Both the position numbers and the translations under genes were made by a program. Below, piece after piece: positions 10,028-60,637 of a stretch of 64,000 nt of DNA. Location: assembly GCA_044229975.1 (NCBI GenBank), contig JBGARZ010000006.1, forward strand, positions 416,001 to 480,000. Reading direction: 5' to 3'. This DNA is from Polyangiales bacterium. Lineage in GTDB: Bacteria; Myxococcota_A; Polyangia; Polyangiales; Ga0077539. The notes under the pieces are model-generated. The model saw only the letters and a list, made by a program, of their open reading frames with translations. It was not told where the DNA came from and searched no databases. Each line of letters opens with the position of its first letter. Position 1 is the stretch's first letter.

Positions 10028-11647
10028 TCAGGGGTCGTCGGCGCAGCGGACGCCGTTGAGCACGCGGAAGTACGCGACGAAGGCAGAAGAGCCCGAGCCG
10101 CCAACGGCGAGTCCCGCATGGCACCTGGGTCGCCAGGCCATGCCGTTGAGCTGCACGCTCGATGGTTGCAGGTACGGCGTCATGGTCAGGTCGCCCATCC
10201 TCACGTCGGTGATGTCTTCGGTCGCAAAGAGCTCGTACCGATACTCGTAGACGCGACCCGCGCCACCGAACGCCACCGCCCGCGCACCGTCGGACGAGAA
10301 CGCCACCCCAAATGCGCCGATGACCATCGGCGCAGAGAAGCCTGCTGCCCAAACCCCGGCGCGGTAACGGTAGAGCCGTTGCCCCGACCAACCGACAGTC
10401 AGCGCGACGTCGCCCTGCGGGCGCGCGACGATGCGCGACACGTTGCCGATCTGACCGGCGAGCATCAACGAGCGGACCTGCGGCGACGCTGAGTCGAGCA
10501 TCGTGGCCGAGAGGATGTCGGCGCCGTTGGTCCCGCAGACCACCATCAGCGCGGGGTCACCGAAGCCATCGGGCACCCATGCGAAGTCGTTGCAGACCCT
10601 GCCCGAACTGATGCCGTAGCCGAAGGGCGTCCCGGTACGCGTGCCGTCGGCGGAGTACGGCCAGAACACGATGGAGCTCGGGCCAGAGGTGAGCAGCATC
10701 GCGCGGCTGCCGTCGGGTGACCACCGCAGCGACTGGTAGCTCGCGGTGGTGGAAGCCTCCGCGGTGCGCTCGGCGAGCATCCCGGTGGCGTGGTCCCAGA
10801 TGAAGATGCGGCCACGCACAGTGGCGCTCGAACCACTTCCCGTAGTGGTGTTGGCGAGCAGCAACGCGCGTGCTCCGTCCGGCGTGAAGACAACATCTCG
10901 CCAAGCCACGGTGCTTGTCGTCACGCCTACCCGGGTCACTGCGCGCGTCGAGACATCGTAACGGAACACCGTGCTGGAGGAGGACAGGATCAATGCGTAG
11001 CTTCCGGCGGGATGCCAGGCCACAGCGACTGGCGCGGCCAACAAGTCGGGTCGCACCGCCGTGTACTCGTACACGCCGACTGGAGCGGGCCCGGTCACCA
11101 CCGGAACATCCGGCGCGCCGCTGTCCCGCGCCCCGGTGTCCGTCGGTACGTCCACCCCACGATCCGGGAAGCCCACGTCGAAGCCGCTGTCGAAGCCGAC
11201 ATCGAACCCGCTGTCGAACCCGCTATCGAAGCCCGCGTCCGGTCGGTTCTCGACGCCGCTGTCCGTCGCGATGTCCGCGATCGTGCCCGCGTCGAAGCCC
11301 GCGTCCGTCCCGATGTCCGTCCCGATGTCCGTCCCGGTGTCGACGACCGTGCCCGCGTCCACCCCGACGTCCGTCCGCACGTCCGTCCCGATGGTCCCGC
11401 GGTCGGCCGGCGTGAACACGTCCTGCGGTTCAGGCCGGTCGGTGGTCACCTTCGGCGCCTCGACGCACAGGCCGTTGCGGTTGCACGTAAACCCGTCCTC
11501 ACAGTCGCGATCTTCCGCGCACTCGCTGAGGCAGCGGTTCATCTCGCAGCGCGCGTGCTGGCCGCACTCCGAGTTGATCGAGCACTCGATGTTCGCGCAC
11601 GACGTCGTCAGAGCGCAGACGAGGAGCGCGGCCGCCAGGGTCTTCAC
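10028..11647 (-). CDS. Lipoprotein: Cys-rich N-domain, Asp/Gly stalk, WD40-like beta-propeller
   Basis: GTG start, lipobox TTSC, CSINSECG...C repeats, DAGFDSG repeats, AWHPAG/WSPDG/FSSDG blade motifs. Confidence 0.75.
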   Translation of the reverse strand: MKTLAAALLVCALTTSCANIECSINSECGQHARCEMNRCLSECAEDRDCEDGFTCNRNGLCVEAPKVTTDRPEPQDVFTPADRGTIGTDVRTDVGVDAGTVVDTGTDIGTDIGTDAGFDAGTIADIATDSGVENRPDAGFDSGFDSGFDVGFDSGFDVGFPDRGVDVPTDTGARDSGAPDVPVVTGPAPVGVYEYTAVRPDLLAAPVAVAWHPAGSYALILSSSSTVFRYDVSTRAVTRVGVTTSTVAWRDVVFTPDGARALLLANTTTGSGSSATVRGRIFIWDHATGMLAERTAEASTTASYQSLRWSPDGSRAMLLTSGPSSIVFWPYSADGTRTGTPFGYGISSGRVCNDFAWVPDGFGDPALMVVCGTNGADILSATMLDSASPQVRSLMLAGQIGNVSRIVARPQGDVALTVGWSGQRLYRYRAGVWAAGFSAPMVIGAFGVAFSSDGARAVAFGGAGRVYEYRYELFATEDITDVRMGDLTMTPYLQPSSVQLNGMAWRPRCHAGLAVGGSGSSAFVAYFRVLNGVRCADDP

Positions 11648-26927: not shown

Positions 26928-27061
26928 CGATGGGTTGGGACGACGTGAGCTGTTCCGCCGCCACTCCCGCCGCCACCCCCGCCGCCACCCCCGCCACCCC
27001 TGCAACGACGGCGTTTCTCGGTGAGTCTCGCTGGCACGCGCCGCGCTCTGGGAGTGCGGTG

Positions 27062-27979
27062 ATGGCGACGCCGTTCGACAGCCTGGCGAAGGAGATCCTC
27101 GACGTGCTGTTGCACGACCTCGGTCAACTGGAGACCGAAGTGGACGTGCCCGCGCTCGCGTCGCAACGCTCGGACGCATTCTTCGTCCCCGACCCGTTGC
27201 GGGACGACGAGCGTCGCGCGTTGGGGCTGCTCGGTCGCATCACGGCGGTGGCCGCGCTGCTGGAGCCCTTCCACGGAGCGCCGAGCCTGGACGACGTGTT
27301 CGCGTGCTTGCGCAAGATGCTCAACCACCGCCACGCGATGCTGTTGGCGAAGCGTCCCGTGGCAGAGCGCGCGTGGTTGTTCTGCGGCAGGCGCCCCGAC
27401 GCGGCTCTTCGCGCGCTGGGTGCCGTGCCCGCACCTGGGTGGCCTTCGGGCGTCTATCACTTGAGCGTGGGGATGCCGATGTCCTTCGTGGTGCTCTCGG
27501 AGCTGGAGCAGACCGACGACACGTTGCCGCTCCGACTCATGGGCTCCGGTGCGACGCTGACGTCAGCCCTGCGAACACTGCGCGAGCGCTACGGCGTGTT
27601 GCCGCGTGGGCGTGCGCTGTTCGCTGAGGTGGTACAAGTGTTCCTGGCGGCGCGGAAGCGCGGCGAGCGACTCACGGAGGAGTTCATGGTCGATCTCACC
27701 GAAGCCTACGAGTACATGGATCGCCAGCACGAAGAGGGCCTCCAGAAGGGCCTCCAAAGGGGCCTCCAGAAGGGCCGCGAGGAAGGCCGCGAGGAAGGTC
27801 ATGAGGAGGGAGCCCGCGCGGTGCTGGCCCGCCTCACAGAGCTGAAGCTGGCGCGCCCGCTGACCGACGCCGAGCGCGCCGTGATGCTCCGTCGGCTCGA
27901 CCTCGACGGCGTCGAGGCCGTAGGTGTGGCCCTGCTGTCTCTCGATCGCGACGCCCTCGCGAGCTGGCTCACCGGGTAA
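27062..27979 (+). CDS. Rpn/YhgA-like PD-(D/E)xK-fold protein with xxEG/xxKG tetrapeptide repeats
   Basis: FDSLAKEIL...ETEV...RSDAFF...LLEPF N-terminus; VVLSELEQTDDTLPLRLMGSG; HEEGLQKGLQRGLQKGREEGREEGHEEG. Confidence 0.75.
   Translation: MATPFDSLAKEILDVLLHDLGQLETEVDVPALASQRSDAFFVPDPLRDDERRALGLLGRITAVAALLEPFHGAPSLDDVFACLRKMLNHRHAMLLAKRPVAERAWLFCGRRPDAALRALGAVPAPGWPSGVYHLSVGMPMSFVVLSELEQTDDTLPLRLMGSGATLTSALRTLRERYGVLPRGRALFAEVVQVFLAARKRGERLTEEFMVDLTEAYEYMDRQHEEGLQKGLQRGLQKGREEGREEGHEEGARAVLARLTELKLARPLTDAERAVMLRRLDLDGVEAVGVALLSLDRDALASWLTG
27686..27979 (+). CDS. Putative in-frame nested small protein (RpnS-like, 97 aa)
   Basis: GGAGG at 27676-27680 followed 5 nt later by in-frame ATG (MVDLTEAYEYMDRQHEEG...). 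Confidence 0.5.
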   Translation: MVDLTEAYEYMDRQHEEGLQKGLQRGLQKGREEGREEGHEEGARAVLARLTELKLARPLTDAERAVMLRRLDLDGVEAVGVALLSLDRDALASWLTG

Positions 27980-30512: not shown

Positions 30513-32708
30513 ATGCGGGGCACGAAGCGTGGGCTCAGGGGTTCGTCGGTCAGGCGTTGGATGCTGTCGTGCGCGCTCACCAGCGCCGCCTGCGCGCCAT
30601 CGCTCAACCTCACCGTCGACGCCAGCGCCGACGCGCCCGCGGACGTCGCGACCGACGCCGGGTCGCCCGTCGACACGGCCCCCGCGGTCGATATGCAGAT
30701 GCCCGTCGACACGGCCCCTGCGGTCGATGTGCAGGCGCCCGTCGACATGGCCCCCGCGGTCGATGTCCCAGCTCCCATCGACACTGCCCCTGCGGTCGAT
30801 GTCCCAGCTCCCATCGACACTGCCCCTGCGGTCGATGTGCAGGCGCCGGTCGACATGCCGCCGCCCGTCGATGTGCCCCCGTCCGTCGACGTCGTCACCT
30901 GCGCGGGCGGCGCGACCCTCTGCGGCGCGACCTGCGTCAGCACCGCGACCGACCTCGCCCACTGCGGCGGCTGTAGTCGCGCGTGCGCCCCTGCCAACGC
31001 CACCGCGATGTGCACGGGCGGCACCTGCCGGGTGAACCGCTGCAACACCGGCTTCGTGGACTGCGACGGCGAGGCGAGCAACGGCTGCGAGGCGGCGCCG
31101 ATGACCGACGCGCGCAACTGCGGCGGCTGCGGCATCGTGTGCGGCGGCGCGGCGACCTGCGTGGCCGGGACCTGCGTGTGCGGCGGAACCCAGTGCGGCG
31201 GACGTTGCACCGACACCACGAGCGACGCGGCTCACTGCGGCGTGTGCGGGTTCGCGTGCCCGTCGGGCGTGACCTGCGCGTCGTCCCGCTGCGGCACCAT
31301 GGCCTGCGCGCCGGGCCTCACCGATTGCAGCGGTCGCTGCCTCGACGCGACCAGCGACAACGCCAACTGCGGGGTGTGCGGCCGCGTCTGCGGGACGGGC
31401 GCGAGCTGCGTGCGCGGGGCCTGCGCGACGACGCCGTGGTTTCGCCAGTACGGCACCAGCGGCGAGGACTACACCAACGCGTTTGCGCGCGACACGGCGG
31501 GCAACATCTACGCGGCCGGGACCTTCTCCAGCTCCATCACCCTCGGCACCACGACCTACACCGGCGGGGCCCGCGGGTGGATCGCGCGCTTCTCGCCGAC
31601 CGGCGCGGTGCTCTGGTCGACGACGGCGGGCACCACGGTGCGAGGCATCGCCGTCGACGCCTCCAACAACCTCTACGCGGTCGGAACCTTCACCGGCACG
31701 ACCACCATCGGCACGCGCATGCTCGGCTCCGCGGGCGCCACGGACTGGTTCGTCGCGAGCTACACACCCGACGGCGCGCTCCGCTGGGCCGTGCGCCAGG
31801 GCGGGGCGAACGACGACTACGCCTCGCACGTGGGCGTCGACAGCGCGGGCCGGGTCTGGGTCGCCGGCTTCTTCAGCAGCGCGACGACCTTCGACGGCCG
31901 CACCGTGGCGTCCATGGGAAACCTCGACGTGTTCGTGGCGCAGCTCAACGCCGCCGACGGCTCGCCCCGCGAGTTTCTCCCCTTCGGCAGCCCGAACTAC
32001 GACCTCATCCGCGGGCTCGTGGTCGACCCGACCGACGGCGCCGCCGTCACGCTGACCTTCGGCGGGCTCCTCACGGTGGGCACCGCCACCGCCACCGGCG
32101 GCTCAGTGTGCGGGGCCGTCGTGCGCCTCGGCCCCGACCTCTCGTCGCGTTGGAACACCGTCATCCAGGGCGGCTCGAACCTCAACCCCAGCGACCTCGC
32201 GCGCGACGCGTCGGGCAACTTCTACGTCTCGGGCGAGGTCTCCACGTCCCCCGTGCGGGTCGGCTCGTCGTCGTCCCTGACGACCGGGACCAACAGCGGC
32301 AACGGCTTCGTGGTGAGCCTCAACGCGAGCGGCGCCTACCGCTGGGGCGTGGCCGTGAGCGGCAGCGCCAACGGCTCCTCGGACGACTACGTCGACGCGG
32401 TGAGCGTGGCGCCCGACGGCACCGTCCTCGCGCTCGGGGTCGCGACCTCGGCGGCGGTGACCGTCGGCGGAGTCTCGGTGCCGCGCGCCACCGGTCGCGC
32501 CCACTGGCTCGCGGCCATCAGCGCGTCGGGCACGGTGGGCGCCGTGCGTGCCGTGTACAGCGGACTGAACGTCTCCGACACGTGCCTCCTGGCCGGCAAC
32601 GACGACGTGCTCATCGGCGGTCGCATGTCCGGCACCGGGACCTTCGAAGGCACCGACGTCACGCGCACCACCTCGTACGACGCGTTCGTCTCGCGCTCGC
32701 CGCGCTGA
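30513..32708 (+). CDS. Lipoprotein: VDxPAP stalk, Cys-rich repeats, beta-propeller (SBBP-like); alternative start 30561
   Basis: Lipobox SAAC; repeats D.xHCGxCGxAC; DTAGNIYAAG/DASNNLYAVG blades. Confidence 0.8.
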   Translation: MRGTKRGLRGSSVRRWMLSCALTSAACAPSLNLTVDASADAPADVATDAGSPVDTAPAVDMQMPVDTAPAVDVQAPVDMAPAVDVPAPIDTAPAVDVPAPIDTAPAVDVQAPVDMPPPVDVPPSVDVVTCAGGATLCGATCVSTATDLAHCGGCSRACAPANATAMCTGGTCRVNRCNTGFVDCDGEASNGCEAAPMTDARNCGGCGIVCGGAATCVAGTCVCGGTQCGGRCTDTTSDAAHCGVCGFACPSGVTCASSRCGTMACAPGLTDCSGRCLDATSDNANCGVCGRVCGTGASCVRGACATTPWFRQYGTSGEDYTNAFARDTAGNIYAAGTFSSSITLGTTTYTGGARGWIARFSPTGAVLWSTTAGTTVRGIAVDASNNLYAVGTFTGTTTIGTRMLGSAGATDWFVASYTPDGALRWAVRQGGANDDYASHVGVDSAGRVWVAGFFSSATTFDGRTVASMGNLDVFVAQLNAADGSPREFLPFGSPNYDLIRGLVVDPTDGAAVTLTFGGLLTVGTATATGGSVCGAVVRLGPDLSSRWNTVIQGGSNLNPSDLARDASGNFYVSGEVSTSPVRVGSSSSLTTGTNSGNGFVVSLNASGAYRWGVAVSGSANGSSDDYVDAVSVAPDGTVLALGVATSAAVTVGGVSVPRATGRAHWLAAISASGTVGAVRAVYSGLNVSDTCLLAGNDDVLIGGRMSGTGTFEGTDVTRTTSYDAFVSRSPR
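30661..30890 (+). repeat. Coding 36-bp tandem repeat (PVDTAPAVDVQA-like)
   Basis: About six degenerate head-to-tail copies with no spacers. Confidence 0.85.
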
Positions 32709-32720
32709 CCGTCGACGGGA

Positions 32721-34187
32721 TTACGGGAGGAGGGTCGCGAGGACGGGGCGCGTCGCGGTCGTGCGGGTTCCGTCGCCGAGCTGGCCCACGTTGTTGAGGC
32801 CCCAGCAGTACACGCGACGGCGCGACCCGGCGGGCCCCGTGAGGGCGCACCGGTGGGTGGAGAGCGAGCCCGTATCGGCGAAGACGGCGGAGGTCAGCGC
32901 CGCGACGTCCGCGAGCCCGGTGATCGTGGTCGGTGTGATGGTGCCGGTCATGGCGCCGGTGCCGAGCTCGCCGTCGATCTGGGTGCCGAAGCACGAGACC
33001 TGGCCGTCGCCCAGGCGGGCGCACACCCCGTCGCTGCCGCCCGAGATTTCCACCACGCCGGACAGCCCCGGGATGGCGCCCGGCGTCGCGATCGGCCCCG
33101 CCCCCGCGCGGAGTCGGTTGTTGGTGTTGTCGCCCCAGCACCAGACGTCGCCCGTCCGCAGCAGCGCGCAGGTGAACCCGCGGCCGACGGCGACGGAGCT
33201 CGCGAGCGGTACCGTGGTGATGGCCGTGGGCGTCATGATCGGGCTCGCCGTGCTCGTGCCGTTCACCTGCCCCACGGTGTTGGCCCCCCAGCAGTAGACC
33301 GCGCCCGACGTGAGCACCGCGCACGTGTGCCCTCCCACCGACACGACCTCGACCCCCGCGGGGCCGGAGATCGGCGTGGGCGTGGGGTTGTTCGCGCTCA
33401 CCGTACCCTGTCCGAGCTGGCTCCCCGAGTTGGTGCCCCAGCACCAGAGCGTGGCGTCGCCGCGGATGGCGCAGCTGTAGCTGGAGCCGCTCATCACCCG
33501 GCGCGCGTCGTCGATCACCGTCACCTGGGTCGGCGGACGCACGGCGTCACCGGTGCCCGAGGCCGTCCCGGTCCCGATCTGGCCTGCCTGGTTGTTGCCC
33601 CAGCACCAGACGGCGCCGGCCGCGGTTCGCGCGCAGGCGAAGTTGCCCCCTACCGTGACCTGCACCATCGGCGGGATGCCGCGCACCTCCGTCAACCCGG
33701 ACGCTCCGGCGTCACCGGCACCCATACCGAGCACGCCCATCGCGTCGGCGCCGAGGCAGAAGACCCGCCCGTCCTCCTGGAGGACACAGGTGTTCGCCGC
33801 GCCGGCGGCGACGCCCACCACCGGCGAGAAGCACCCGCCATCGTCACAGTGCAGCCCGGTCTCCGGCGGAACGTCCACGACCCCGCTGTCGGTTCCCACG
33901 TCGAAGCCTGCGTCGAAGCCTGCGTCGGTGCCCGCGTCGAAGCCCGCGTCGAAGCCCGCGTCGAAGCCCGCGTCACGACTCGCATCGGTGCCCCCGTCAC
34001 GACCCACGTCGATGGCCACATCCGACGGGACGTCGTTGCCCGCGTCGGTGAGCGCCGTGGGGACGTCGGTCGTGGCCGCGTCACCCTCGGTGTTGGTGTT
34101 CGTGTTCGAGCACCCGGCGTAACCGAACATTCCCCCCGTGAGGATCCCTGCCATCAACCACCGGCGTCCCAGCCCCTCGATTCGCAT
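32721..34187 (-). CDS. RCC1-repeat lipoprotein with DAGF stalk
   Basis: Lipobox YAGC; repeated GxxxxCA...GxVWCWGxNxxGQxG. Confidence 0.9.
   Translation of the reverse strand: MRIEGLGRRWLMAGILTGGMFGYAGCSNTNTNTEGDAATTDVPTALTDAGNDVPSDVAIDVGRDGGTDASRDAGFDAGFDAGFDAGTDAGFDAGFDVGTDSGVVDVPPETGLHCDDGGCFSPVVGVAAGAANTCVLQEDGRVFCLGADAMGVLGMGAGDAGASGLTEVRGIPPMVQVTVGGNFACARTAAGAVWCWGNNQAGQIGTGTASGTGDAVRPPTQVTVIDDARRVMSGSSYSCAIRGDATLWCWGTNSGSQLGQGTVSANNPTPTPISGPAGVEVVSVGGHTCAVLTSGAVYCWGANTVGQVNGTSTASPIMTPTAITTVPLASSVAVGRGFTCALLRTGDVWCWGDNTNNRLRAGAGPIATPGAIPGLSGVVEISGGSDGVCARLGDGQVSCFGTQIDGELGTGAMTGTITPTTITGLADVAALTSAVFADTGSLSTHRCALTGPAGSRRRVYCWGLNNVGQLGDGTRTTATRPVLATLLP
33901..33975 (-). repeat. Coding 12-bp tandem repeat (DAGF)n
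   Basis: gtcgaagcccgc units; similar units at about 11170-11310. Confidence 0.8.
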
Positions 34188-39719: not shown

Positions 39720-41066
39720 CTACCCCTGGCAGATGTCGAAGTTGCACTCGCCGTCGCAGCAGTCCGTCCGCGTCCGGCATGGCTGATAGCGCCGCTGGCA
39801 CGCGCGCTGTCGGCAGATGCCGGAGCCGCACTCGCCGCTGCAGCAGTCGGAGTCGGAGCCGCATCCTTCTCCGGGGTCGCCGCAGACGGTCTCGCAGCGA
39901 TTCGCGGTGCACCGCCCGTTGCAGCAGTCGCTGTTGTACACGCAGCGCTGATTGGGCGCGCGGCACACCACCTGGCAGACGCCGGTGTCGCTGCACTCGG
40001 TTCCCTCGCAGCACCAGTTGTCGCTGAAGCACCGCGACTGGCCGGGGCCGTAGCAGCCGTCGGACGCGCGGCACGTGCCCGCCGTGCAGTTGCCCGAGCA
40101 GCAGTTGGAGCGGGTGAGGCAGTCGCCGCCGTTGGCCACGCACGCGGCGGGCGTCCGGCAGGTGCCGCTGGTGCAGACGAGTCCGTCGCAGCAGCCCGAC
40201 CCGCACGGCGTCCCGACGGGCGAGCACGTCGGAGGCGCCTGGCAGGTGCCGCTGGTGCAGACGAGTCCATCGCAGCAACCCGTTCCGCAGGGCGAGCCGG
40301 CGGACGAGCAGGTGGTCGCGGCGCGACAGGTTCCTGCGACGCAGGTGGTGCCCGCGCAGCACTCGCCGCTGTACACGCATGCGCGACCCTCGGTGCGGCA
40401 GACGCAGACCCCGGACGAGCAGAGCATGTAGCCGCAGCAGTCGAGCGCGCCGGTGCATGCCTGGCCCCCCGCGCGGCAACAATGGAGCGTCGTGGGCGTC
40501 GTCTGGCACTCCGAGCCGGCGCAGCACTGGTCGGTGCTGGTGCAGCTCGCGCGCAGCGCAAGGCACACCGGGGTCACCGGCCTGTCCTCGGGCGCAGGAA
40601 CATCCGGCGCAGGGGCATCGGACACGAAGCCGCGATCCATCGCGACCGGGACATCCATCGTGACCGGGACGTCCATCGCGACGGGGACGTCCATCGCGAC
40701 GGGGACATCGACCACGGGGACATCGACCACGGCGGGTGTGTCGCGCGCGGCGACGACGTCCACCATGACGGAAACGTCGGGGGCCGCGGGCGCGTCGGTT
40801 GCGAGCATGACGTCGTTGATCGCGGGCCGATCGGGCGCGACGTCAGCGGAGGTGCCAGCGTCGACGGCGGGGGTGTCTCCAGTGGCGCCGGTGTCCGTGG
40901 GGGAGGCGTCCTGCGGCATCACGTCGGCGCTGACGATGCCTTCGCTGGGGGGCGCGCTGTCCGCGACGGTCGACCCATCGGACGGGAGGTAGAGGCCCGA
41001 CGCGGAGGGCGAGCAGGCGACGAGCAGGAGGGCGAGGCACAGCGGGCGCGAGTAGTTCCTCAACAT
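39720..41066 (-). CDS. Cys-rich repeat lipoprotein with DVP stalk
   Basis: Lipobox LVAC; (DVPVAM)n; multiple C-x6-C-x5-CC-x3-C modules. Confidence 0.8.
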   Translation of the reverse strand: MLRNYSRPLCLALLLVACSPSASGLYLPSDGSTVADSAPPSEGIVSADVMPQDASPTDTGATGDTPAVDAGTSADVAPDRPAINDVMLATDAPAAPDVSVMVDVVAARDTPAVVDVPVVDVPVAMDVPVAMDVPVTMDVPVAMDRGFVSDAPAPDVPAPEDRPVTPVCLALRASCTSTDQCCAGSECQTTPTTLHCCRAGGQACTGALDCCGYMLCSSGVCVCRTEGRACVYSGECCAGTTCVAGTCRAATTCSSAGSPCGTGCCDGLVCTSGTCQAPPTCSPVGTPCGSGCCDGLVCTSGTCRTPAACVANGGDCLTRSNCCSGNCTAGTCRASDGCYGPGQSRCFSDNWCCEGTECSDTGVCQVVCRAPNQRCVYNSDCCNGRCTANRCETVCGDPGEGCGSDSDCCSGECGSGICRQRACQRRYQPCRTRTDCCDGECNFDICQG

Positions 41067-41307
41067 GGGACGGCGGGTATCACGCGGGGTGGGACGGTCC
41101 AACGAGCTGCCGACGCCGGGGGGCGGGCGAAGACCGCAGAAACGACGGGAAATCAACGGGTCGATGACGCACCTGTGCGAACAGCGTTCGCAGGGTTGCA
41201 ACGTCAGGCGGGGTGTTGCGCCGTCGGGCATCCCACGCGCCGACGCGAACGCGATGAGGGCGCCGCCCGAGCCGTGGGAGACTGCGTCGCCTCCAACGCT
41301 CACCGTC

Positions 41308-43590
41308 ATGACGCCGACGATCATCAACGCCCTGCTCGGGCCGACCAACACCGGCAAGACCCACCGGGCCGTCGAGCGCATGCTCGAACACCCCACCGGC
41401 ATGATCGGCCTCCCGCTGCGCCTCCTGGCGCGCGAGGTCTACGACCGCGTCAGCACCCGCGTGGGCGAAGCGCGCGTCGCGCTGATGACCGGCGAGGAGA
41501 AGCGCGTCCCGGCGCGGCCCGATTACTGGGTGTGCACCGTCGAGGCGATGCCGCTCGACCGGCCGGTGGACTTCCTCGCGGTCGACGAGATACAGCTCGC
41601 GGCGCATCAGCAGCGCGGGCATGTGTTTACCGATCGACTGCTCAACGCGCGGGGTGAGCGGGAGACGTGGTTCATGGGGTCGGACACCGCGGTCGGCGTG
41701 GTGGGCGAGCTCGTGCCGACGGCGAAGGTGTCGAGCGCGCCGCGGTTCTCGAAGCTGAGCGCGGCGGAGACGGTGCCGCTGGCGAGGGTTCCGCGGAGGA
41801 GCGCGGTGGTGGCCTTCTCGATGGAGCAGGTCTACGAGCTCGCCGAGAAGCTGCGTGCGATGAAGGGCGGGACGGCCGTGGTGCTGGGCGCGCTGTCACC
41901 GCGGGCGCGCAACGCGCAGGTGGCGATGTTCCAGTCGGGCGAGGTCGACTACCTCGTGGCGACGGACGCCATCGGCATGGGGCTCAACCTCGACGTGAAG
42001 CACGTGGCCTTCGCGTCGCTGCGGAAGTTCGACGGGCGCGTGGCGCGCGAGCTCGACCCCGCGGAGCTCGGTCAGATCGCCGGTCGCGCGGGCCGCCACC
42101 TGCAAGACGGAACCTTCAGCGCCCTCGCCCCGCACGTCATCCCCGCGGACGTGAGAGCGCAGATCGAGAGCCAGCGGTTTGCGCCGCTGCGCAAGGTGGT
42201 GTGGCGTTCGAGCGCGCTGGATTTCAGCTCGGTGGCGGCGCTCACGGCGGCGCTGAAGGTTCCGGCGCCGAGGCGCATCCTCACGCGGGTGCAGCAGGCG
42301 GAGGACGAGGCCGCGCTGGCGGCGCTGCTGGTGCGCACCGACGTGCGCGAGCGAGCGACGGGGGCGAAGCGGGTCGAGGCGCTGTGGGAGGTGAGCACGG
42401 TGCCCGACTTCCGTCGGCTGCTCTTCGAGGACCACGTCGGTCAGCTCGCGTCGGTCTACGTCGAGCTCTGCGACCACGGTCGGCTGCGGGACGACTTCAT
42501 CCGCGCGGGGGTTGTTCCGCTCGAAGACCTGACGGGTGACGTCGACACCCTGGTGGCGCGCCTCGCGACGGTGCGAACGTGGTCGTACCTGGTCAACCGC
42601 GGATCCTGGATCGACGACGCCGCGCACTGGCAGGAGCGCACGCGCGCCCTCGAAGACCAGTTGAGCGACGCGCTGCACGCGCGGCTGGTGCAGCGCTTCG
42701 TGGACGAGCCCGCGCCCGCGAAGCAGGCATCACCGCGACCGCGTCGGATGATGACCGAGGCGGAGACGAAGCCGGTCGACCCGCGGCATCCCTTCGCGGC
42801 GCTGAAGGGGATGCGGGCGGCGCTCGGTCCGAAGGTGGCGGCGACGACGGCCTCACCGACGGCGTGGATGGAGGAGCTCATCGACGCACCGCACGCGCGG
42901 TTTACGCTCAACGGTAAAGGACAGGTGCTGCTGGTGCCTGAAGGCGAGGTGCTGGCGGTGTTGGTGGCGGGCGCGTCGGTGACGCTGCCGGATGTGCAGT
43001 TGGAGACGTCGCGCGCGCTGGCTGCGCTGGGTGGTGGGGCGCGCACGCGGCTGTTGCGTCGGCTGGTGGCGTGGTCGCGCGACGAGGTTCACGCGCTGCT
43101 GGCGCCGGTGGAGCAGGCGGCGGGCGAGGCGGTGGACGCGGCGTGGTGGCGGGGATTGCACCACCAGCTGGCGCAAGGGTTGGGCTGCGCGATGACGTCG
43201 GAGGTGGCGGGCGTGCTGGCGGACGTCGACCGCGACGCGCTGGCGGCGAGGGGGTTGGTGCTGGGAGCGCGGGTGGTGTTCGCGCGGGCGCTGCTGACGG
43301 CGGAGGCGGTGGCGCGGCGGGTGGTGCTGGTGCGGGCGCGCTACGGGAAGGGCGTGCGGGCGCCGGCCGAGGGCGCGGCGTCGATGGCGGTGGAGACGGG
43401 TGTGTCGCCGCGGGCGTACCTGGCGATGGGGTATCCCGTGATGGGCGGCAGAGGCGTGCGCGCGGACGTGGTGGAGCGCATCGCGGCGGCGTGCGCGACG
43501 GAGGACGGGCGGCGGTCGCCGTTTGCGCAGTGGCTGGGATGCGGCGCGCGCGAGGCCGAGCGGGTGGTGGAGGCGATCGCGCCGGGGTAG
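41308..43590 (+). CDS. SUV3-like (MgpS-like) superfamily 2 RNA helicase
   Basis: LGPTNTGKT, PLRLLARE, CTVEAMP, DEIQL, RGHVFT, ATDAIGMGLNL, QIAGRAGR. Confidence 0.92.
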   Translation: MTPTIINALLGPTNTGKTHRAVERMLEHPTGMIGLPLRLLAREVYDRVSTRVGEARVALMTGEEKRVPARPDYWVCTVEAMPLDRPVDFLAVDEIQLAAHQQRGHVFTDRLLNARGERETWFMGSDTAVGVVGELVPTAKVSSAPRFSKLSAAETVPLARVPRRSAVVAFSMEQVYELAEKLRAMKGGTAVVLGALSPRARNAQVAMFQSGEVDYLVATDAIGMGLNLDVKHVAFASLRKFDGRVARELDPAELGQIAGRAGRHLQDGTFSALAPHVIPADVRAQIESQRFAPLRKVVWRSSALDFSSVAALTAALKVPAPRRILTRVQQAEDEAALAALLVRTDVRERATGAKRVEALWEVSTVPDFRRLLFEDHVGQLASVYVELCDHGRLRDDFIRAGVVPLEDLTGDVDTLVARLATVRTWSYLVNRGSWIDDAAHWQERTRALEDQLSDALHARLVQRFVDEPAPAKQASPRPRRMMTEAETKPVDPRHPFAALKGMRAALGPKVAATTASPTAWMEELIDAPHARFTLNGKGQVLLVPEGEVLAVLVAGASVTLPDVQLETSRALAALGGGARTRLLRRLVAWSRDEVHALLAPVEQAAGEAVDAAWWRGLHHQLAQGLGCAMTSEVAGVLADVDRDALAARGLVLGARVVFARALLTAEAVARRVVLVRARYGKGVRAPAEGAASMAVETGVSPRAYLAMGYPVMGGRGVRADVVERIAAACATEDGRRSPFAQWLGCGAREAERVVEAIAPG

Positions 43591-43638
43591 GTGTTCCTGG
43601 CGGCGCGGAAGCGCGGCGAGCGTCTCACGGAGGAGTTC

Positions 43639-43881
43639 ATGGTCGATCTCACCGAAGCCTACGAGTACATGGATCGTCAGCACGAGGAGGGGCGCGCGGA
43701 GGGAGCCCGCTCGATGCTGGTGCGCCTCACCGAGCTGAAGCTCGCGCGACCGCTGACAGACGCCGAGCGCGCCGCCATGCTCGGTCGCCTCGACCTTGAT
43801 GGCGTCGAGTCCGTCGGCGGAGCATTGGTGTCTCTCGACCGCGACGCCCTCGCGCTCTGGCTCGCCGCCACCCGCGGCTGA
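43639..43881 (+). CDS. Stand-alone Rpn C-terminal (RpnS-like) small protein, 80 aa, or a 5'-deleted paralog
   Basis: 43591-43881 homologous to 27638-27979; GGAGG at 43629-43633 then ATG 43639; ORF intact. Confidence 0.6.
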   Translation: MVDLTEAYEYMDRQHEEGRAEGARSMLVRLTELKLARPLTDAERAAMLGRLDLDGVESVGGALVSLDRDALALWLAATRG

Positions 43882-43918
43882 GCGGCGTCCCCGCGTCAAC
43901 CCGTCCGTCCGCGCTCCC

Positions 43919-45022
43919 TCAGTTGAGCTGCTCGCACGGCAGTTTCACCCGCATCACCCAGCCCGCCGCCGCGCGCTTCACCTCGGCGCTTCCCCCCAGC
44001 GACGCGACCCTCCCGCGAATCGACGCCAGCGCCTTCCGCGAGCGCCCGCCCTCGTTGACCGTTCCGTCGTCTTCGACCTCCAGCACGAGGCCCCCGTCGG
44101 CGCGCCGCAGCGTCACCGCGATGCTCCGCGCCTCGGCCTCGCGCAGCGCGTGGCTCGCGGCCTCCTGGGTCACCTTCATCACCCCCTGGCGCATCTTGTT
44201 GCTGGGCGGTGCGAGGCCCTTCAGCTCGGCGTGCACCGTCGAGCTCACCCCGGCGTCGTCGCACAGCGTCGTGATGCTCGTGCGGATGCGGTCGACCAGG
44301 CCCTCCCACCCGGCGTCGTCGCTCGCGGCGGCCGCCTCGCGCTCGCTCTCCTTCGCCTCCGACGCGTTGCTGCGCAGCGTGCGCGCGGACGACGCGGCCA
44401 GCGTGAGCCCCGGCGACGAGGTGCGCTCGCGGTGGGGCCTGGGGCGCTCGCGGCGGTCGTTGAGCAGCGCCTCGCGCTCGGCGAGCAGCAGCGCCAGGGA
44501 GTGCGTCGCCCGCGCCAGCCACGCGTGCGCCATGACCATCAGCGCGACGACGAGGCCGTAGGGGAGCGTCGGGCCGCGCGAGGCGAGCGCGCGCACGACG
44601 AGGCCGCTGAGCCCGGCGACGGCCGCCATGATCATGGTGCGCGGCGTCGGAACCCGCAGGGCGCAGAGCACCATCGCGACGCCGTAGAGGAAGAGCCCGA
44701 CGGTGACAGGCGCCTTGCCGAGGGCGCCGAGCCACGCGAAGGAGACGAGCGAGAGCGACCAGGTGAACGTGTCGCCGAGCGACCAGCGCGACGAGCGACC
44801 CTCCGACGCGGTTCCGGCCGCAGAGGCCGCGAAGGCGAGGCCGCCGAGCAGCGAGGGCCACGCCGTCGGTTGCACCAGCCAGTCTTCCAGCCTCGGGAAG
44901 ACCTTGGCGATGAGCGGGAGCATCGCGCCGAGGCCCGAGAGCACCGCGAGGTGCCACCGTCGTTGTCGAGCGCTTCGGAGGTCGAGCAACACCGTCACCA
45001 TTGGATGAACGCCGACGCGCAC
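43919..45022 (-). CDS. Membrane protein with degenerate HATPase_c domain (NarX/DesK-like pseudo-kinase); alternative start 45001
   Basis: Several TM helices; QEAASHALREA, LEVEDDG, RVASLGG; no H-box seen. Confidence 0.75.
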   Translation of the reverse strand: MRVGVHPMVTVLLDLRSARQRRWHLAVLSGLGAMLPLIAKVFPRLEDWLVQPTAWPSLLGGLAFAASAAGTASEGRSSRWSLGDTFTWSLSLVSFAWLGALGKAPVTVGLFLYGVAMVLCALRVPTPRTMIMAAVAGLSGLVVRALASRGPTLPYGLVVALMVMAHAWLARATHSLALLLAEREALLNDRRERPRPHRERTSSPGLTLAASSARTLRSNASEAKESEREAAAASDDAGWEGLVDRIRTSITTLCDDAGVSSTVHAELKGLAPPSNKMRQGVMKVTQEAASHALREAEARSIAVTLRRADGGLVLEVEDDGTVNEGGRSRKALASIRGRVASLGGSAEVKRAAAGWVMRVKLPCEQLN

Positions 45023-45072
45023 ACTAGCTCAGTCCCGCGACGGCCGCGACCGTCGCTACGACGTGCGTCGCC

Positions 45073-47109
45073 CTACGGCGTCGGCGCGAGGCGGGCGAGG
45101 GCGGTGCGCGCCTGGGAGAGATCGGGCTGCACGCGCAGGGCGGCGCGGAGATGGGTGACGGCCTCGGCGAGGTTGGCGGCGCCCCCGACGCCCTCCAACA
45201 ACAGCGCGAGGTTGGTGTGGGCGTAGGCGTAGTTGGGGTCGTCGACGAGGGCGGCGCGGTACGCGGCGATGGCCTCGGGGCCGTGGCCCTGGAGGGCGAG
45301 CACGCGGCCGAGGTTGTAGTTGGCCTTGGCGCGCAGGGCGGTGCGCTCGGCCTCGGTGGTCTGCCACGCGGGGCCGCGGCGCAGGGCCTCGCGGAAGCGG
45401 GTGGCGGCCTCGTCGAGGCGGTTCTGGTTGGAGGCCACGACCCCGAGGTTGACCAGCGCGAGGGCGTTGTTGGGGTCGGTGCGGAGCTGTTGTTCCCAGT
45501 CCTGCTGGGCGGTGGCGGCCTCGGTGCCGTTGGTCACGAGGATGGCGAGGCGCGCGCGCGCGGTCGGGTCTTGGGGGCGGTAGCGCACGGCGGTGCGGTA
45601 CATCTCGATGGCCTCGTCGACGCGGCCCTGCGCTTCGAGGGTGAGGCCGAGCGGCGCGTAGGAGAACGTCGCGACCCGCGGCGCGACGGCGATGGAGGCG
45701 CGGTAGTAGCGCTCGGCCTCGGCCCAGCGGCGCGCGAGGTGGGCCTCTTCGCCGAGGGACGCGAGGGCGTGATACGGCATCGGGTCGGTGGCGCGCCACT
45801 CCTGGAGGAAGGCGTGGTTGGTGACGTAGTAGCCGCCGCGGTGGACGGTCACGACGGCCGCGAGGGCGGTGAGCAGCGCGAGCGCGGCGAGGGCGGGGCG
45901 ACGGCGCGTGGGCTCGACCGCGGAGGAGAAGAGCACGCCGAGGATGCCCACGGCGGCGGGCAGCGCGAGGAGCACGTAGCGCTCGGCGAAGCGGGTCTCC
46001 TGCTTGAAAAGGTTGGCCGTCGGAAACACGGCGAAGACGAACCACCCGGCCCAGAAGATCACGGGCCGTCGCAGGTCGGGCCACGCGCGGCGGGCGAGCG
46101 CGGCGAGGAGCCCGACGACGCCGAGCACCACGAAGACCTTGGGGAGGGAGAACCACCCTTCGACGGGCGGTTCGTAGAAGAGCCGCCAGGTGGGGAGGAA
46201 GATGGACTGGAGGGTGTAGAGCGTGGACAGCCACGGTCCGGAGGGTTCGTCGTCGAGGATGAACCGCGGCGCGCTGTCGGCCGAGAGCATGGCGCCGCGC
46301 AGCGCAAACCACGCGAGGCCCATCACGGCGACGGGCGCGTACCGCTTCACCCAGCGGCCGAGCGAGCGACCGGGTGAGTCGTACGAGAGGTCGCAGAGGT
46401 CGGCCCAGACGAAGAAGAGCGGGAGCGCGACGGCCTGCTCCTTGAGCAGCAGCGAGACGCCGAGGAGGCCGACGGCGGAGGCGTGGGCGCGCGGTCCGGG
46501 TCGGGTCCAGGCGACCATGGCGGCGAGGACGGCGGCGAAGCACGCGAGGGTCTCGGGGCCGACGGACGCGGCGTAGACGCCTTCGGAGGCGGTCGGGTGG
46601 AGCGCGACGAGGAGCCCGGCGAGCACGGCGACCGCGGGCGTGATGCCGAGCTCGGGGAGCGTGAAGAGCGAGCGCGCGAGGGCGGCGACGAGGCCCATGA
46701 GGGCGGCGTTGAAGAGGTGATAGGGAGCGGGCTCTTCGCCGAACACCATGTGCTCGGTGGCGAGCAGCAGGCGTGAGAGGGGGCGGTAGTAGGGGAGGTG
46801 GTTCCAGTGAACCTGGGAGACGGATTCGAGGAGGGCGTCGATGGTGCGCGGGCGCGGCGGCGTCAGGATGAGGGGGTAGTCGTCGTAGACGAAGGCGTTG
46901 GTGGCCCGCAGCGCATAGACGCTGGCGACCGCGGCCCCGACCGGGAACGACCAGCGGTCGAAGACGGGCGGCAGCGGCGGGCGCTCGCGGGGCGGCGGCT
47001 CGACGGGCTCGTCATCGAGCGGGGCGGTGACGGCATCGGGTCGACGCGCCGACTTGGGGACGGTGCGCCAGGCGGCGGGTGATTTGGGAGCGCGCGGGGC
47101 CTTCGCCAC
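45073..47109 (-). CDS. TMTC-like GT-C membrane glycosyltransferase with TPR repeats
   Basis: FVYDD, YYRPL, YHLFN, ALHP..SEGV, LLKE, AERYVLL; C-terminal TPRs. Confidence 0.8.
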   Translation of the reverse strand: MAKAPRAPKSPAAWRTVPKSARRPDAVTAPLDDEPVEPPPRERPPLPPVFDRWSFPVGAAVASVYALRATNAFVYDDYPLILTPPRPRTIDALLESVSQVHWNHLPYYRPLSRLLLATEHMVFGEEPAPYHLFNAALMGLVAALARSLFTLPELGITPAVAVLAGLLVALHPTASEGVYAASVGPETLACFAAVLAAMVAWTRPGPRAHASAVGLLGVSLLLKEQAVALPLFFVWADLCDLSYDSPGRSLGRWVKRYAPVAVMGLAWFALRGAMLSADSAPRFILDDEPSGPWLSTLYTLQSIFLPTWRLFYEPPVEGWFSLPKVFVVLGVVGLLAALARRAWPDLRRPVIFWAGWFVFAVFPTANLFKQETRFAERYVLLALPAAVGILGVLFSSAVEPTRRRPALAALALLTALAAVVTVHRGGYYVTNHAFLQEWRATDPMPYHALASLGEEAHLARRWAEAERYYRASIAVAPRVATFSYAPLGLTLEAQGRVDEAIEMYRTAVRYRPQDPTARARLAILVTNGTEAATAQQDWEQQLRTDPNNALALVNLGVVASNQNRLDEAATRFREALRRGPAWQTTEAERTALRAKANYNLGRVLALQGHGPEAIAAYRAALVDDPNYAYAHTNLALLLEGVGGAANLAEAVTHLRAALRVQPDLSQARTALARLAPTP

Positions 47110-47157
47110 GGGGCGGAGGTTACACCGAAGGCATTGGGCGGATGGACGGGAAGTCGC

Positions 47158-48021
47158 TCAGACGTCGATGTGCCGCAGCTTCATCTGCACGTCGCTCGAC
47201 CAGTGCGCCGCGAACCCGCGCACGCACGTCGACAGGTACCGGTCGTAGTCCTCGAAGACCTGGTCGCCCCACTTCGCGCGGATGGCCGTCTCCTGCAGGC
47301 GCATCCGCCGCAGCCACTCGGCCGTGGTCTTGCCGTAGTCGGTGCGGCGGGTCTTCAGCTCCACCACCTCCCAGTACGGGTTCACCGCGGCGATGAGCTC
47401 CTCCAGCCGGGGGTTGAGCCCGCCCGGGAAGATGACGTCCGCCGTGAACTTCAGGTCGGCGATGTCCTGTCGCACGCGCGGAACCCGGTTGCGCAGGATC
47501 GCCTGGAACCCGAAGTAGCTCCCCGGCTTCACCCACGACGCGCACTTCTTGAAGTACTCGCGGTAGATCTCGATCGCCACGTCCTTGCCCTGGTTGGCCT
47601 GCGCGGGCGAGCAGAGGTGGTCGATCATCTCGATGGAGACGAGCGCGTCGTACTTCTCCTTCGGCTGATAATCCCGGTAGTCGGTGAGGAAGACCTCGAC
47701 GCCCGGCATCTTGCGCGCCTTGAGCTCCTCGAACTGCGCCGACGAGAGCGTGATGCCGTGCGCGCGCTTCGTCTGCCGCGCGACGCTGAGGTACTCGAGG
47801 TTGGCGCCCCACCCGCAGCCGATGTCGAGGATCAGCTTGTCGGGGTTCATCTCTGCGTACTCGTAGAGCACGCGGGACTTGTTCACCTGGGCCTGCTCCA
47901 GCGTCTCGTTTTCCCGCTCGTAGACCGCGCAGGTGTAGTGCATCCGCTCGTCGAGCCAGAGGCGGAAGAACTCGTTGGAGACGTCGTAGCTGACCTCGAC
48001 CTCGTGCTTCGTGCTCGTCAT
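47158..48021 (-). CDS. cfa: Cyclopropane-fatty-acyl-phospholipid synthase / mycolic-type methyltransferase family
   Basis: YDVSNEFFRLWLD.RMHYTCA, LEQAQ, LDIGCGWG, SIEM, IFPGG. Confidence 0.85.
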   Translation of the reverse strand: MTSTKHEVEVSYDVSNEFFRLWLDERMHYTCAVYERENETLEQAQVNKSRVLYEYAEMNPDKLILDIGCGWGANLEYLSVARQTKRAHGITLSSAQFEELKARKMPGVEVFLTDYRDYQPKEKYDALVSIEMIDHLCSPAQANQGKDVAIEIYREYFKKCASWVKPGSYFGFQAILRNRVPRVRQDIADLKFTADVIFPGGLNPRLEELIAAVNPYWEVVELKTRRTDYGKTTAEWLRRMRLQETAIRAKWGDQVFEDYDRYLSTCVRGFAAHWSSDVQMKLRHIDV

Positions 48022-48070
48022 GGCGCCGACGGATAACCCCGGTCGCGGAAACCCGTCAACGCCACCCGGG

Positions 48071-48769
48071 CTACGCGCCCCCGTCACCCAAAGCCGCACG
48101 ACACACGGGCCGCTGCGACTCCTGCTCCTGCAACGCGTTGAGCACGTCGACCAGCCGCTGCACGCCCACCGGCGCGTTGACGCAGCCCTCCGCGGGGCCC
48201 GTGCGGCAAGGGTTTCCCACATAGACGAAGCGCCCGTTGCGGGTGACGAAGAACACCTCCCCGTCGATGGGCCGGCTGTCCACCCCGTAGAAGACCGCTC
48301 CCGCATCACTCGCCGTCGCCGCCTGGAAGGCCGCCGTGACGTCCGCGTTGTTGAGCGCCGTCGCGAGCGTGTCGACCGTCACATCGTCCGTCGCACCACA
48401 CGCCGGGATGGTGGTCTCGCAGCGGGCCGTCGCCCCACCCGCGCGCATCTGCTCCAGCAGGAAGCGGCGCGGCGACGAGACCGAGTACGTGGTCACATCG
48501 GCGCGCAATCCCCCTTCGCGACCGAAGCGGAGGTCACCGCCGGGGACGGCCTCGGCGCACGGACCATCCCGGAAGCCCGCGTCGAGCAGCGGCGCAACAT
48601 CCGTGAGATCGACGACCTCGGGCGCCATGCCCCGATCGACCTGGGGGATGTCCCGGTTGGGGACGTCGAAGCCCGGCGGAACATCACTGCGGTTGTCGGT
48701 GAAGCTGGTCGGAGCATCTTCGCAGGCCGAGACGACCGCGACGAGAAGGGGAAGGAGGGCGAAGCGCAT
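48071..48769 (-). CDS. Hypothetical lipoprotein
   Basis: Lipobox VSAC; DVP-rich linker; paired Cys. Confidence 0.7.
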   Translation of the reverse strand: MRFALLPLLVAVVSACEDAPTSFTDNRSDVPPGFDVPNRDIPQVDRGMAPEVVDLTDVAPLLDAGFRDGPCAEAVPGGDLRFGREGGLRADVTTYSVSSPRRFLLEQMRAGGATARCETTIPACGATDDVTVDTLATALNNADVTAAFQAATASDAGAVFYGVDSRPIDGEVFFVTRNGRFVYVGNPCRTGPAEGCVNAPVGVQRLVDVLNALQEQESQRPVCRAALGDGGA

Positions 48770-48778
48770 AGGAGGGGT

Positions 48779-50494
48779 TCAGAGATTTTCGGTGGAGGGT
48801 GACCACGCATAGACGGGCGCAGGCGCGGGGGCCGACGCGGCGTGGCCGAGGGCGTGACGGAGGCGGGTGAGCAGGGGATTGAGGCTGCGCGCGTCGCGGG
48901 CGTCGATGGCCACGCCGTGCCCCGCGCGGGCGAGCGTAGCGGCTACCCCGAGCGGCGCGAGGTCGCTCTTGTTGAACACCTTGATGCGCGGCAGGTGGTG
49001 CAGATCGAGCGCCTTGAGCAGCGACTCGGTGGTCTCGATGTGGTCTTCGTAGCGGGCGTCGGAGGCGTCGATGACGTGGAGCAGCACGTCCGCCTCGGCG
49101 GCCTCCTCGAAGGTCGCGCGGAAGGCGGCGACGAGGTCCTTCGGCAGATCGCGGATGAAGCCCACCGTGTCGGTGAGGATCATCTCCGTCGGCATCCCAT
49201 CGCCCTCCTTCACGCCGTGGTCGGCGTTGAAGGTGAGGCGCCGCGAGCGCGGATCGAGCGTCGCGAAGAGCTTGTCCTCGGCGATCACCCCCGCACCCGT
49301 CAGCGTGTTGAGCAGGGTGCTCTTACCCGCGTTGGTATAACCGACCAGCGCGGCGACCCGCAGGCCCGACTTCGCGCGGCGCTGACGGCGCTGGCGACGC
49401 TGACCGGAGAGTTCCTTGAGCTGCGATTCGAGGTGGGCGATGCGGTCGCGGGCGCGGCGGCCGGCGATCTCCAGCTTGGTCTCGCCAGGGCCTCGTCCAC
49501 CGATGCCACCTGACAAGCGCGAGAGGGCGTCGTCCTTCTGGCCGAGGCGCGGCAGCATGTACTTGAGCTGCGCGAGCTCGACCTGGAGCTTGCCGTCTCT
49601 CGTCTCGGCGCGTTGGGCGAAGATGTCGAGGATGAGCTGCGTTCGGTCGATGACCTTGAGGTCGGTGACCGCCGAGATGGACGTAACCTGCGAGGGCGCG
49701 AGGTCGCGGTCGAAGATGAGCACATCCGCGTCGCGCTGGAGCGCGCGAAGCATCACCTCGTCGAGCTTGCCCTTGCCGAGCACGAAGCGCGGGTCGACCT
49801 GATCGCGCACCTGGGCGACCTCGTCGACGACGACCACGCCCGCGGTGCGAGCCAGTTCACGCAGCTCGCGCAGGGAGTCCTCGATGAAGTGCGCCTTGCG
49901 CTTGTCGGTGACGTGCACGAGCACCGCGCGGCCGTCGTGGTGCACGGCCTTGCGCGAGCGGGCGAGGCGGTTGAACTCCTCCTCCACCGAGCGAATCATC
50001 GCGAGGAAATCGGTGTCGAGCGTGCGATGCAGGGAGGTCGGGCCCTCCTCGCGCCACATCTTGTTGGCGTGGTTTTCGGGGAGGAGGTGCGCCCAGAAGA
50101 CATCCCCGACGGTCGCGTCGGGCTTCGCGTGGATGGCAGCCACGAGGTCGAAGCGCAGGCGCGTGAGGTCGACGAGGTCGTCGTGCGTCAACGGCTCTCC
50201 GCGCAGGTGCGTGTGCACGAGGCGCAGTCCGCGAAACCGCCCGTCCGCCGCGCGGAGGCGGCCCACGTCGGGGAGCATGAGCTTGTGCGCATCACCGACG
50301 ATGACGTGCTCCACCGCGCCGCTGCGATGCACCAGCACGCCCACCTGCCGCCCGGTGGCGACGGATGCTTCGACGAGGGACTTCGCGAGTTCGGGGGAGA
50401 GGATGCGGTCCGAAGGGACGCGCCGACGGTAGATGCGCTCGAGCGCGCTCTTGTCACTGGGGGAGAGGCCCGTGGTGTTGCCGTAGATCTCGAT
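48779..50494 (-). CDS. hflX: GTPase HflX, long form; probable ATC start codon
   Basis: GYTNAGKST, DKLFATLD, DTVGF, NKSD, IFAQRAETRDGKLQVELAQL; AGGAGGT 8 nt upstream of ATC. Confidence 0.92.
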   Translation of the reverse strand: MEIYGNTTGLSPSDKSALERIYRRRVPSDRILSPELAKSLVEASVATGRQVGVLVHRSGAVEHVIVGDAHKLMLPDVGRLRAADGRFRGLRLVHTHLRGEPLTHDDLVDLTRLRFDLVAAIHAKPDATVGDVFWAHLLPENHANKMWREEGPTSLHRTLDTDFLAMIRSVEEEFNRLARSRKAVHHDGRAVLVHVTDKRKAHFIEDSLRELRELARTAGVVVVDEVAQVRDQVDPRFVLGKGKLDEVMLRALQRDADVLIFDRDLAPSQVTSISAVTDLKVIDRTQLILDIFAQRAETRDGKLQVELAQLKYMLPRLGQKDDALSRLSGGIGGRGPGETKLEIAGRRARDRIAHLESQLKELSGQRRQRRQRRAKSGLRVAALVGYTNAGKSTLLNTLTGAGVIAEDKLFATLDPRSRRLTFNADHGVKEGDGMPTEMILTDTVGFIRDLPKDLVAAFRATFEEAAEADVLLHVIDASDARYEDHIETTESLLKALDLHHLPRIKVFNKSDLAPLGVAATLARAGHGVAIDARDARSLNPLLTRLRHALGHAASAPAPAPVYAWSPSTENL

Positions 50495-50502
50495 GGTCGA
50501 TG

Positions 50503-60444: not shown

Positions 60445-60637
60445 GCCTCACCCCCCAACCCCCTCTCCGTTGACCCTCGCAGACTCGGGCTCGGCCGGAG
60501 AGGGGGAGCAAGAGGGATCAAGAAGTTCACGACCGCCTGAAGTTCCCTGAACAGCGTCCCTGTTGCCTCTTGCTCCCCCTCTCCGGCCGAGCCCGAGTCT
60601 GCGAGGGTCAACGGAGAGGGGGGTTGGGGGGTGAGGC
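60445..60637. repeat. REP doublet / REPIN-like inverted repeat
   Basis: Arms 60445-60515 and 60566-60637 are reverse complements (one G/C indel), 50-nt spacer; each arm is itself a CCCCTCTCC...GGAGAGGGG hairpin; lies between convergent genes. Confidence 0.85.

Follow-up and report, generated by a model that had tools for sequence, protein, structure and literature searches.

The closest described systems are the Rpn nucleases of Escherichia coli, in which, in the account of the E. coli genes given in PMC10400941, the long form acts as a toxic DNase, which a short form, made from an internal start, binds and blocks. The same account presents neutralisation as cognate-specific and as failing with a difference of one repeat, and RpnA is described as needing D11, D63 and E82, with Q84 included in the catalytic set D...D...E-x-Q (PMC5350276, PMC10400941). 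Stand-alone RpnS genes are likewise on record for E. coli, namely rpnESs (ypaA), rpnCSs, rpnFSs and rpnP1Ss, associated with DUF4351/PF14261 (Zhong et al. 2023, PMC10400941), and in the passages of that source devoted to them such genes arise repeatedly and get lost or fused. For type II systems, the portion of PMC7192599 concerned with Klebsiella reports that orphan antitoxins are common and interprets them as pairs that have decayed, as anti-addiction modules or as cross-acting regulators.

The locus studied here lies in a window (the whole stretch of DNA analysed, 64,000 nucleotides) on contig C23 of a 10-Mb genome with 71% GC (G000), and consists of a 5'-truncated Rpn-like remnant, called O, which was compared with the full-length gene A of the same window and with a paralogue on contig C4, called B (Table 1). 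The labels of homologues (Deltaproteobacteria, Polyangiaceae) and the Atlas taxa point to a host of Myxococcota-like type. As the original prediction had it, homology to A sets in at 43591, on the base after the helicase stop codon (TAG, 43588-43590), the nuclease domain is missing (a domain-profile search gave no nuclease match at the O locus), and the match to A from 27638 onward is near exact. O begins in the helicase frame, and an ungapped comparison with A counted 2 differences over the initial 95 nt and one more at nt 96, all three of them synonymous. The GGAGG-ATG does fall inside the matched stretch, and the count of two repeats against seven in A was borne out, B having three. By BLASTN, O and A are 97% identical over 101 nt (E 4e-42), and the O tail is 83% identical over 185 nt. 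The tail had also been called more diverged but intact; its reading frame is indeed open to the stop codon, but it is not a diverged copy of the gene at 27062, since it lies as far from A (25/165 nt) and from B (26/165) as these two lie from each other (26/165), which makes O a third allele. This tail is 84-85% identical to those of both A and B and differs from each at 9/55 residues, and the anchor, as we call the near-identical 5' stretch, differs at 2/93 nt from A and at 8/93 from B.

Table 1. Features of the remnant, of its full-length relative and of their surroundings (positions are those of the window).
Feature	Position	Strand	Basis
(GCCGCCACCC)n array with TGGCAC-N7-GC box, 5' of gene A; neither is present at O	26958..27046	+	sequence search
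Gene A, 305 aa: PD-(D/E)XK-fold domain ~1-190, 7 repeats, helical tail	27062..27979	+	comparison, model, fold match
TGGTACAAG, candidate internal extended -10 element with rare GTA codon	27630..27638	+	putative promoter role
Internal GGAGGAG and ATG (27686) of gene A	27676..27688	+	sequence motif
Suv3-like DEXQ helicase ORF; homology to relatives from ~41313; TAG abuts O	41065..43590	+	domain match, congener comparison
Remnant O, 5'-truncated, Rpn-like: 48-nt lead-in and small ORF	43591..43881	+	sequence comparison with gene A
Lead-in of O, 48 nt, corresponding to parent codons 193-208; in the helicase frame but past the helicase stop	43591..43638	+	1 difference from gene A
Shine-Dalgarno-like GGAGGAG of O	43629..43635	+	sequence motif
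RpnS-like ORF of O, intact, 80 aa, predicted antitoxin	43639..43881	+	ATG 43639, TGA 43879-43881
Two tetrapeptide repeats of O, HEEG RAEG	43681..43704	+	translation comparison
Convergent gene, weak HATPase_c match (E 6e-4); stop 37 nt from O stop	43919..45022	-	domain scan

The 80-aa ORF of O is a called gene (P0041) in the protein collection; three collection proteins begin at its internal Met, and P0042 and P0045 share the AATRG end. Its look-alikes in the Atlas are stand-alone proteins of 71-77 aa, one set of which has DUF4351 in 11% of members; O gave no Pfam match at E 0.1, DUF4351 included, and its links to DUF4351, through the Atlas and through the distant matches P0039 and P0040, are indirect. 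A sigma-70 promoter and terminator scan over 43300-44100 returned nothing, the public runs listed held no RNA data with O, and the predicted complex of A with the 80-aa ORF scored 0.29 (mark 0.34), a value that speaks neither for nor against binding. The junctions of O are genuine, and misassembly is rejected because they are bridged by independent contigs of two public runs. Run X3 comes from a relative about 93% identical (151 differences/2125 nt); one of its contigs, free of gaps, covers 41514-43638 and passes the helicase/O junction by 48 nt, and a second runs from 43689 into the downstream gene, with 48 unaligned letters at the repeat position and two indels in the tail that, among those listed, cancel out. 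Run X1 contributes pieces at 43604-43757 (0 differences) and 43731-43938 (5 differences), and no piece crosses the junction among those listed for runs X2 and X5.

Judged by its structural model (pLDDT 85, with helices predicted at 244-304), the N-terminal domain of gene A is a PD-(D/E)XK nuclease fold. The best VIA-align match was the NucS/EndoMS-type structure 2vld (Z 8.9, rmsd 3.2, 104 aligned), equalled by 1y88 (Z 8.9, rmsd 3.5, 119 aligned), with McrC and many restriction-type nucleases lower down; Foldseek rows agreed with a nuclease fold, none of them reaching E 0.001. Residues D6, D38 and E68 are conserved in at least 90% of 39 family sequences, and at the place of the RpnA residues E82-x-Q84 gene A has E-P-F, with F70 at the expected Q, the equivalence to the RpnA set being judged by spacing along the sequence. 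A and Rpn have in common the PD-(D/E)XK fold, an internal RBS-ATG, repeats, a helical tail and a patchy multicopy distribution. Of 59 full-length genes, 48 have the internal in-frame RBS-ATG at a distance of 45-240 nt from the start of the tail, compared with 6/59 in a control window; the repeats begin 14 residues past the internal Met and vary from 2 to 7 copies among alleles. Unlike Rpn, the A family falls below the HMM cut-offs, is divergent and occurs mostly in Myxococcota-like genomes, and A carries an upstream repeat array with a sigma-54-like box. PF04754 (Transposase_31) had no match in A or in the 39 aligned members, TIGR01784 scored 15.6 bits against a cut-off of 52.1 and in the repeat region only, a PADLOC search likewise matched the repeat region only, and a PDB sequence search gave no match; an hhalign comparison of A1 with P0039 was set aside as circular, because A1 itself contains P0039. 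The Atlas places A near clusters with DUF4351 in 30% of members, a genome_contigs scan with P0042 found 11 matches, all weak (E 7e-8 or worse) and for the most part in the repeat region, and a metagenome scan gave one full-length gene, L040. On these comparisons, A is Rpn-like in architecture and would work as Rpn does, but lies outside Rpn by HMM.

Two putative control elements distinguish A from O. The TGGCAC-N7-GC box upstream of A is sigma-54-like. The array, usually followed by such a box, recurs at 17 sites in G000, among them that of the window, C36:66272(-), C25:22605(-), C34:45643(+), C2:62405(-), C19:158231(+), C36:127462(-), C4:208375(+) and C39:162447(+); it stands 5' of four genes or remnants of the A type, of further genes with repeat tails and of a PDDEXK_3 gene, and also 5' of recA, radC and a comM-like gene of the Mg-chelatase family. 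Among the 14 closest full-length relatives, 12 have the box upstream, as do 28/79 overall, the background being 1.3% per 69 nt, and the genes so marked possibly form a common DNA-uptake or recombination regulon. The second element lies within A. There the motif TGGTA(C/A/G)A, with its GTA codon (1.3% of Val codons), is conserved just 5' of the O breakpoint position in those relatives that have the anchor, and it resembles an internal extended -10 element. Since O starts at the last base of TGGTACAAG, the rest of which is missing, expression of O would require read-through from the helicase.

The loss of the nuclease part is a recurrent event in this family. In G000, two of 11 tail-profile matches are without a nuclease domain, O and a copy on contig C39, and they begin at different parent codons, ~193 and ~152, respectively. 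The C39 remnant (L219, C39:125894-125430, minus strand) starts directly after its upstream repeat array; its counterpart on contig C179 of genome G001 (L037, L051), with same-looking flanks, breaks near codon 170, and both retain TGGTACAGT, the RBS-ATG and an intact ORF, which suggests that the nuclease was lost in parallel in two species. The tail module was matched in 22/31 family genomes, with up to 19 matches per genome within one genus. All listed places together with L040, minus two matches below 20 bits and identical tails, yielded 128 distinct tail copies, which were sorted by profile coverage and by eye: 66 carry the A-type domain, 28 carry other domains, 14 lie at contig ends, 14 are 5'-truncated and six are other (two internal deletions and one each of nonsense, frameshift, decay and in-frame fusion). 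The truncated copies, 14/114 of those assessable, come from eight genomes, all have an open ORF of 79-105 aa, and 13 of them retain the RBS-ATG. Thirteen breakpoints could be measured (12 of the 14 and the C39 copy) and lie 28-477 nt before the ATG, seven of them at most 75 nt away (binomial p 3e-4 versus uniform, with kin that are not independent and with erosion also inflating the value). The breakpoints are clustered near the ATG, without a fixed site. Random breakpoints together with frameshifts had been named beforehand as the sign of ordinary decay; the breakpoints do vary, but all 14 truncated copies have intact ORFs, in a tail-first search that favours intact tails and in which erosion of unconstrained 5' remnants could shorten the apparent breakpoint distances. 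One remnant (L069) starts 1 nt past an upstream stop, and another, L132 in genome G002, is decayed.

A nuclease-first control covered 123 genes (the earlier loci and 40 regions, part of 182 nuclease-domain matches), of which 91 are intact and 12 lie at edges. In 16 the nuclease is broken and a frame of tail length is open (two of these are also frameshifted there, by eye), and in two the nuclease is intact and the tail short; a further two were scored as broken in both parts, one in fact keeping its tail, and part of the breaks may be assembly errors. When genes of this family break, it is mostly the nuclease part that goes and the tail that stays. Repeat-plus-helix tails also occur on other N-terminal domains (L054, L062, L089, L095, L107, L113, L118, L156 and others), and of 15 such proteins scanned five had Uma2, three had PDDEXK_2 and seven had none. 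At L083 (G036:C151:6317-6592), an unrelated gene carries repeats and tail as an in-frame fusion at its 3' end, the internal start being absent, and L135 (G032:C68:23579-24234) is a tail-only small ORF directly 3' of a full-length gene, like the E. coli rpnSs genes.

The reading that we favor, and hold to be probable, is that O is an Rpn-like gene from which the nuclease was deleted and in which an RpnS-like antitoxin ORF was retained, likely read through from the helicase. It is the best reading because the locus is real, the ORF is intact, the parent is of the PD-(D/E)XK type, the internal RBS-ATG is conserved and the nuclease goes first when genes of this family break. The remnant could have arisen and persisted in several steps: (i) a deletion likely removed the nuclease domain, together with the promoter region upstream, from a third Rpn-like gene, of the type that joins a PD-(D/E)XK-fold domain to a conserved internal RBS-ATG, variable four-residue repeats and a helical tail, and the 3' end of that gene survived; (ii) if, as in the part of PMC10400941 on E. 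coli Rpn, the long form is a toxic DNase that the short form blocks, the antidote would be the 3' end of the toxin gene itself, so that only deletions sparing that end would be tolerated and the nuclease would decay first; (iii) erosion would be halted on the left by the stop codon of the neighbor and on the right by the RBS, giving a stop-then-anchor junction that would call for no dedicated recombination site, and an AGGTG microhomology would permit the join; (iv) with the candidate internal -10 cut away, O would depend on the helicase promoter; and (v) the 80-aa ORF might since have been kept by selection, buffering related nucleases, resident or incoming, of matching repeat length. Because O has two repeats, A seven and B three, and because neutralisation in E. 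coli needs equal repeat numbers, O may match no resident nuclease.

The same deletion could also have left an inert remnant, its ORF no longer expressed or useful and intact only as the last part that can be lost, an explanation that we regard as unlikely but as the most serious competitor. It accords with the loss of the candidate internal -10, with a repeat number that matches neither A nor B, with the decayed state of L132 and with the presence of only two remnants in G000. Against it, the junction is common to the X3 relative, 7% diverged, in whose tail the two listed indels compensate each other; the tail divergence of O from A (nine changed residues and 12 synonymous codons) equals that between full-length genes (10 and 12); and O and A differ by only synonymous changes over 31 codons, fewer than drift predicts. 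In this last comparison, 2 differences in the 95 nt of the anchor stand against the ~6.7 that neutral drift would be expected to have left since the split from X3 (Poisson p 0.036, marginal), the 48 non-coding nt on their own giving no significance (p 0.15), and the sequence may thus hint at selection still acting on O.

The original prediction had offered a donor cassette as a further option, in which O would store an alternative tail that is recombined through the conserved anchor onto full-length genes, changing their specificity. Synonymous differences between A and O do fall unevenly, at 2 of 31 codons in the anchor and 12 of 46 in the tail (Fisher p 0.036, with the boundary chosen post hoc); at the protein level, P0042 and P0045 combine a B-like tail core (2-3/55 residues different) with the AATRG end of O, in which the full-length P0001 also ends; unrelated nuclease domains carry one and the same tail (the Uma2 and PDDEXK_2 proteins above); and X3 has its unaligned letters at the repeats. 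The breakpoints, however, range from 28 to 477 nt instead of being fixed, among the four DNA alleles no more than 4 sites are informative and no conversion tract is seen, and a silent donor needs no RBS-ATG, yet nearly all remnants retain one. The anchor is, moreover, near-equally conserved between the full-length A and the metagenomic L040 (3/93 nt, versus 75/576 in the nuclease part), and its conservation is therefore a family trait, and the dispersed bank of cassettes that had been envisaged shrinks to the two remnants found in the genome. We consequently find a dedicated donor improbable, although the occurrence of one tail on several nuclease families makes tail exchange over evolutionary time evident at the sequence level.

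The surroundings of O were compared with those in congeners, which in 6/6 cases examined have no Rpn DNA behind the helicase; in 5/6 the helicase is followed by a gene that we presume, from its translation, to be LOG-like. In genomes G001 and G008 the order is kinase-like gene ... hflX-like GTPase, helicase, and in the window it is helicase, O, kinase-like gene ... GTPase; over 41313-50495, the helicase and the block 43919-50495 are swapped relative to these two genomes. Since their helicase lies at the other end of the neighboring 6.5-kb block, O marks a rearrangement joint. It is accordingly conceivable, if quite improbable, that O is a scar, captured where a local rearrangement moved the helicase across a 9-kb block, perhaps through the nuclease or through recombination between Rpn genes; the changed position of the helicase and the placing of O exactly at the new joint would fit, but G000 is shuffled relative to congeners in 1-5-kb blocks throughout, so that a break here is not special, and the C39 and L064 remnants keep their own upstream context, which points to deletion in place. 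Such a scar would in any case concern the origin of O and be compatible with an antitoxin function. For O, with no full-length gene at the helicase locus among the congeners examined and with a different gene order, the deletion in place is something that we infer. A 5-nt match, AGGTG, is common to the O junction, the congener helicase ends and the family alleles. Other repeats in the window are a 70-nt inverted repeat at 60451-60630 (94% complementary, 40-nt spacer), 36-nt and 12-nt coding tandem repeats in long ORFs (30611-30898, 11156-11371 and 33867-34022) and Cys-rich repeats at 30947-31392.

That the assembly is chimeric, or that stop read-through yields a protein in which the tail is fused to the helicase, is scarcely credible: two copies stand 16 kb apart on one contig and O is in frame with the helicase, but independent contigs already contradict misassembly, the O tail allele is unique in the genome, and placement in frame is a 1-in-3 chance, L069 being out of frame with its upstream gene. 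A cDNA copy of a short transcript was considered as a source of the remnants and rejected, as the breakpoints have no common start position.

Taken as a nuclease-deleted gene with its antitoxin ORF retained, O would carry the gene-within-gene toxin-antitoxin design over to a nuclease family that is divergent and missed by the Rpn HMMs, and would illustrate a decay route that this design predicts, in which the nuclease is lost and the antitoxin kept, in about one in eight assessable copies. With two, three and seven repeats, O, B and A form a natural set, within one genome, for repeat-number specificity and for the action of free tails in trans. A wider proposal, which we put forward as speculation and regard as doubtful, is that Myxococcota-like genomes keep free RpnS-type tails at dispersed sites, under constitutive co-transcription. 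Such tails would protect in trans against repeat-tailed nucleases that arrive from outside (A-type, Uma2, PDDEXK_2), and would double as a reserve from which full-length genes acquire a new tail, and with it a new specificity, by recombination, the full-length toxins having a sigma-54-like element in common with recA, radC and comM.

The original prediction had expected a poorly described system, which overstates the case, and the surprise is modest, because stand-alone rpnS genes are already published (PMC10400941). What is new in O is its dispersed position and its divergent family, the type of stand-alone gene being known; no report of dispersed RpnS remnants in this group was found in the literature searched, though the species tables of PMC10400941 may list such genes. 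As far as the E. coli sections of that source allow the comparison, O and the RpnSs genes are alike in three respects: (i) each is a small gene of its own, equivalent to the C-terminal part of a nuclease gene, the part with the internal start; (ii) each has four-residue repeats 8-20 residues after the Met; and (iii) each is of repeated independent origin and closest to paralogues of its own lineage. The E. coli genes, as described there, lie directly downstream of their parent, whereas O lies 16 kb from its nearest paralogue, A, behind the stop codon of a housekeeping gene, and O, known from its sequence alone, differs from them further in having neither a candidate internal promoter nor a Pfam DUF4351 match. 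With the type II orphans covered by the Klebsiella part of PMC7192599, O has in common that it is a predicted antitoxin without its toxin; unlike them, the antitoxin is here contained in the toxin gene, and the 5' truncation of a single gene would thus have orphaned it.
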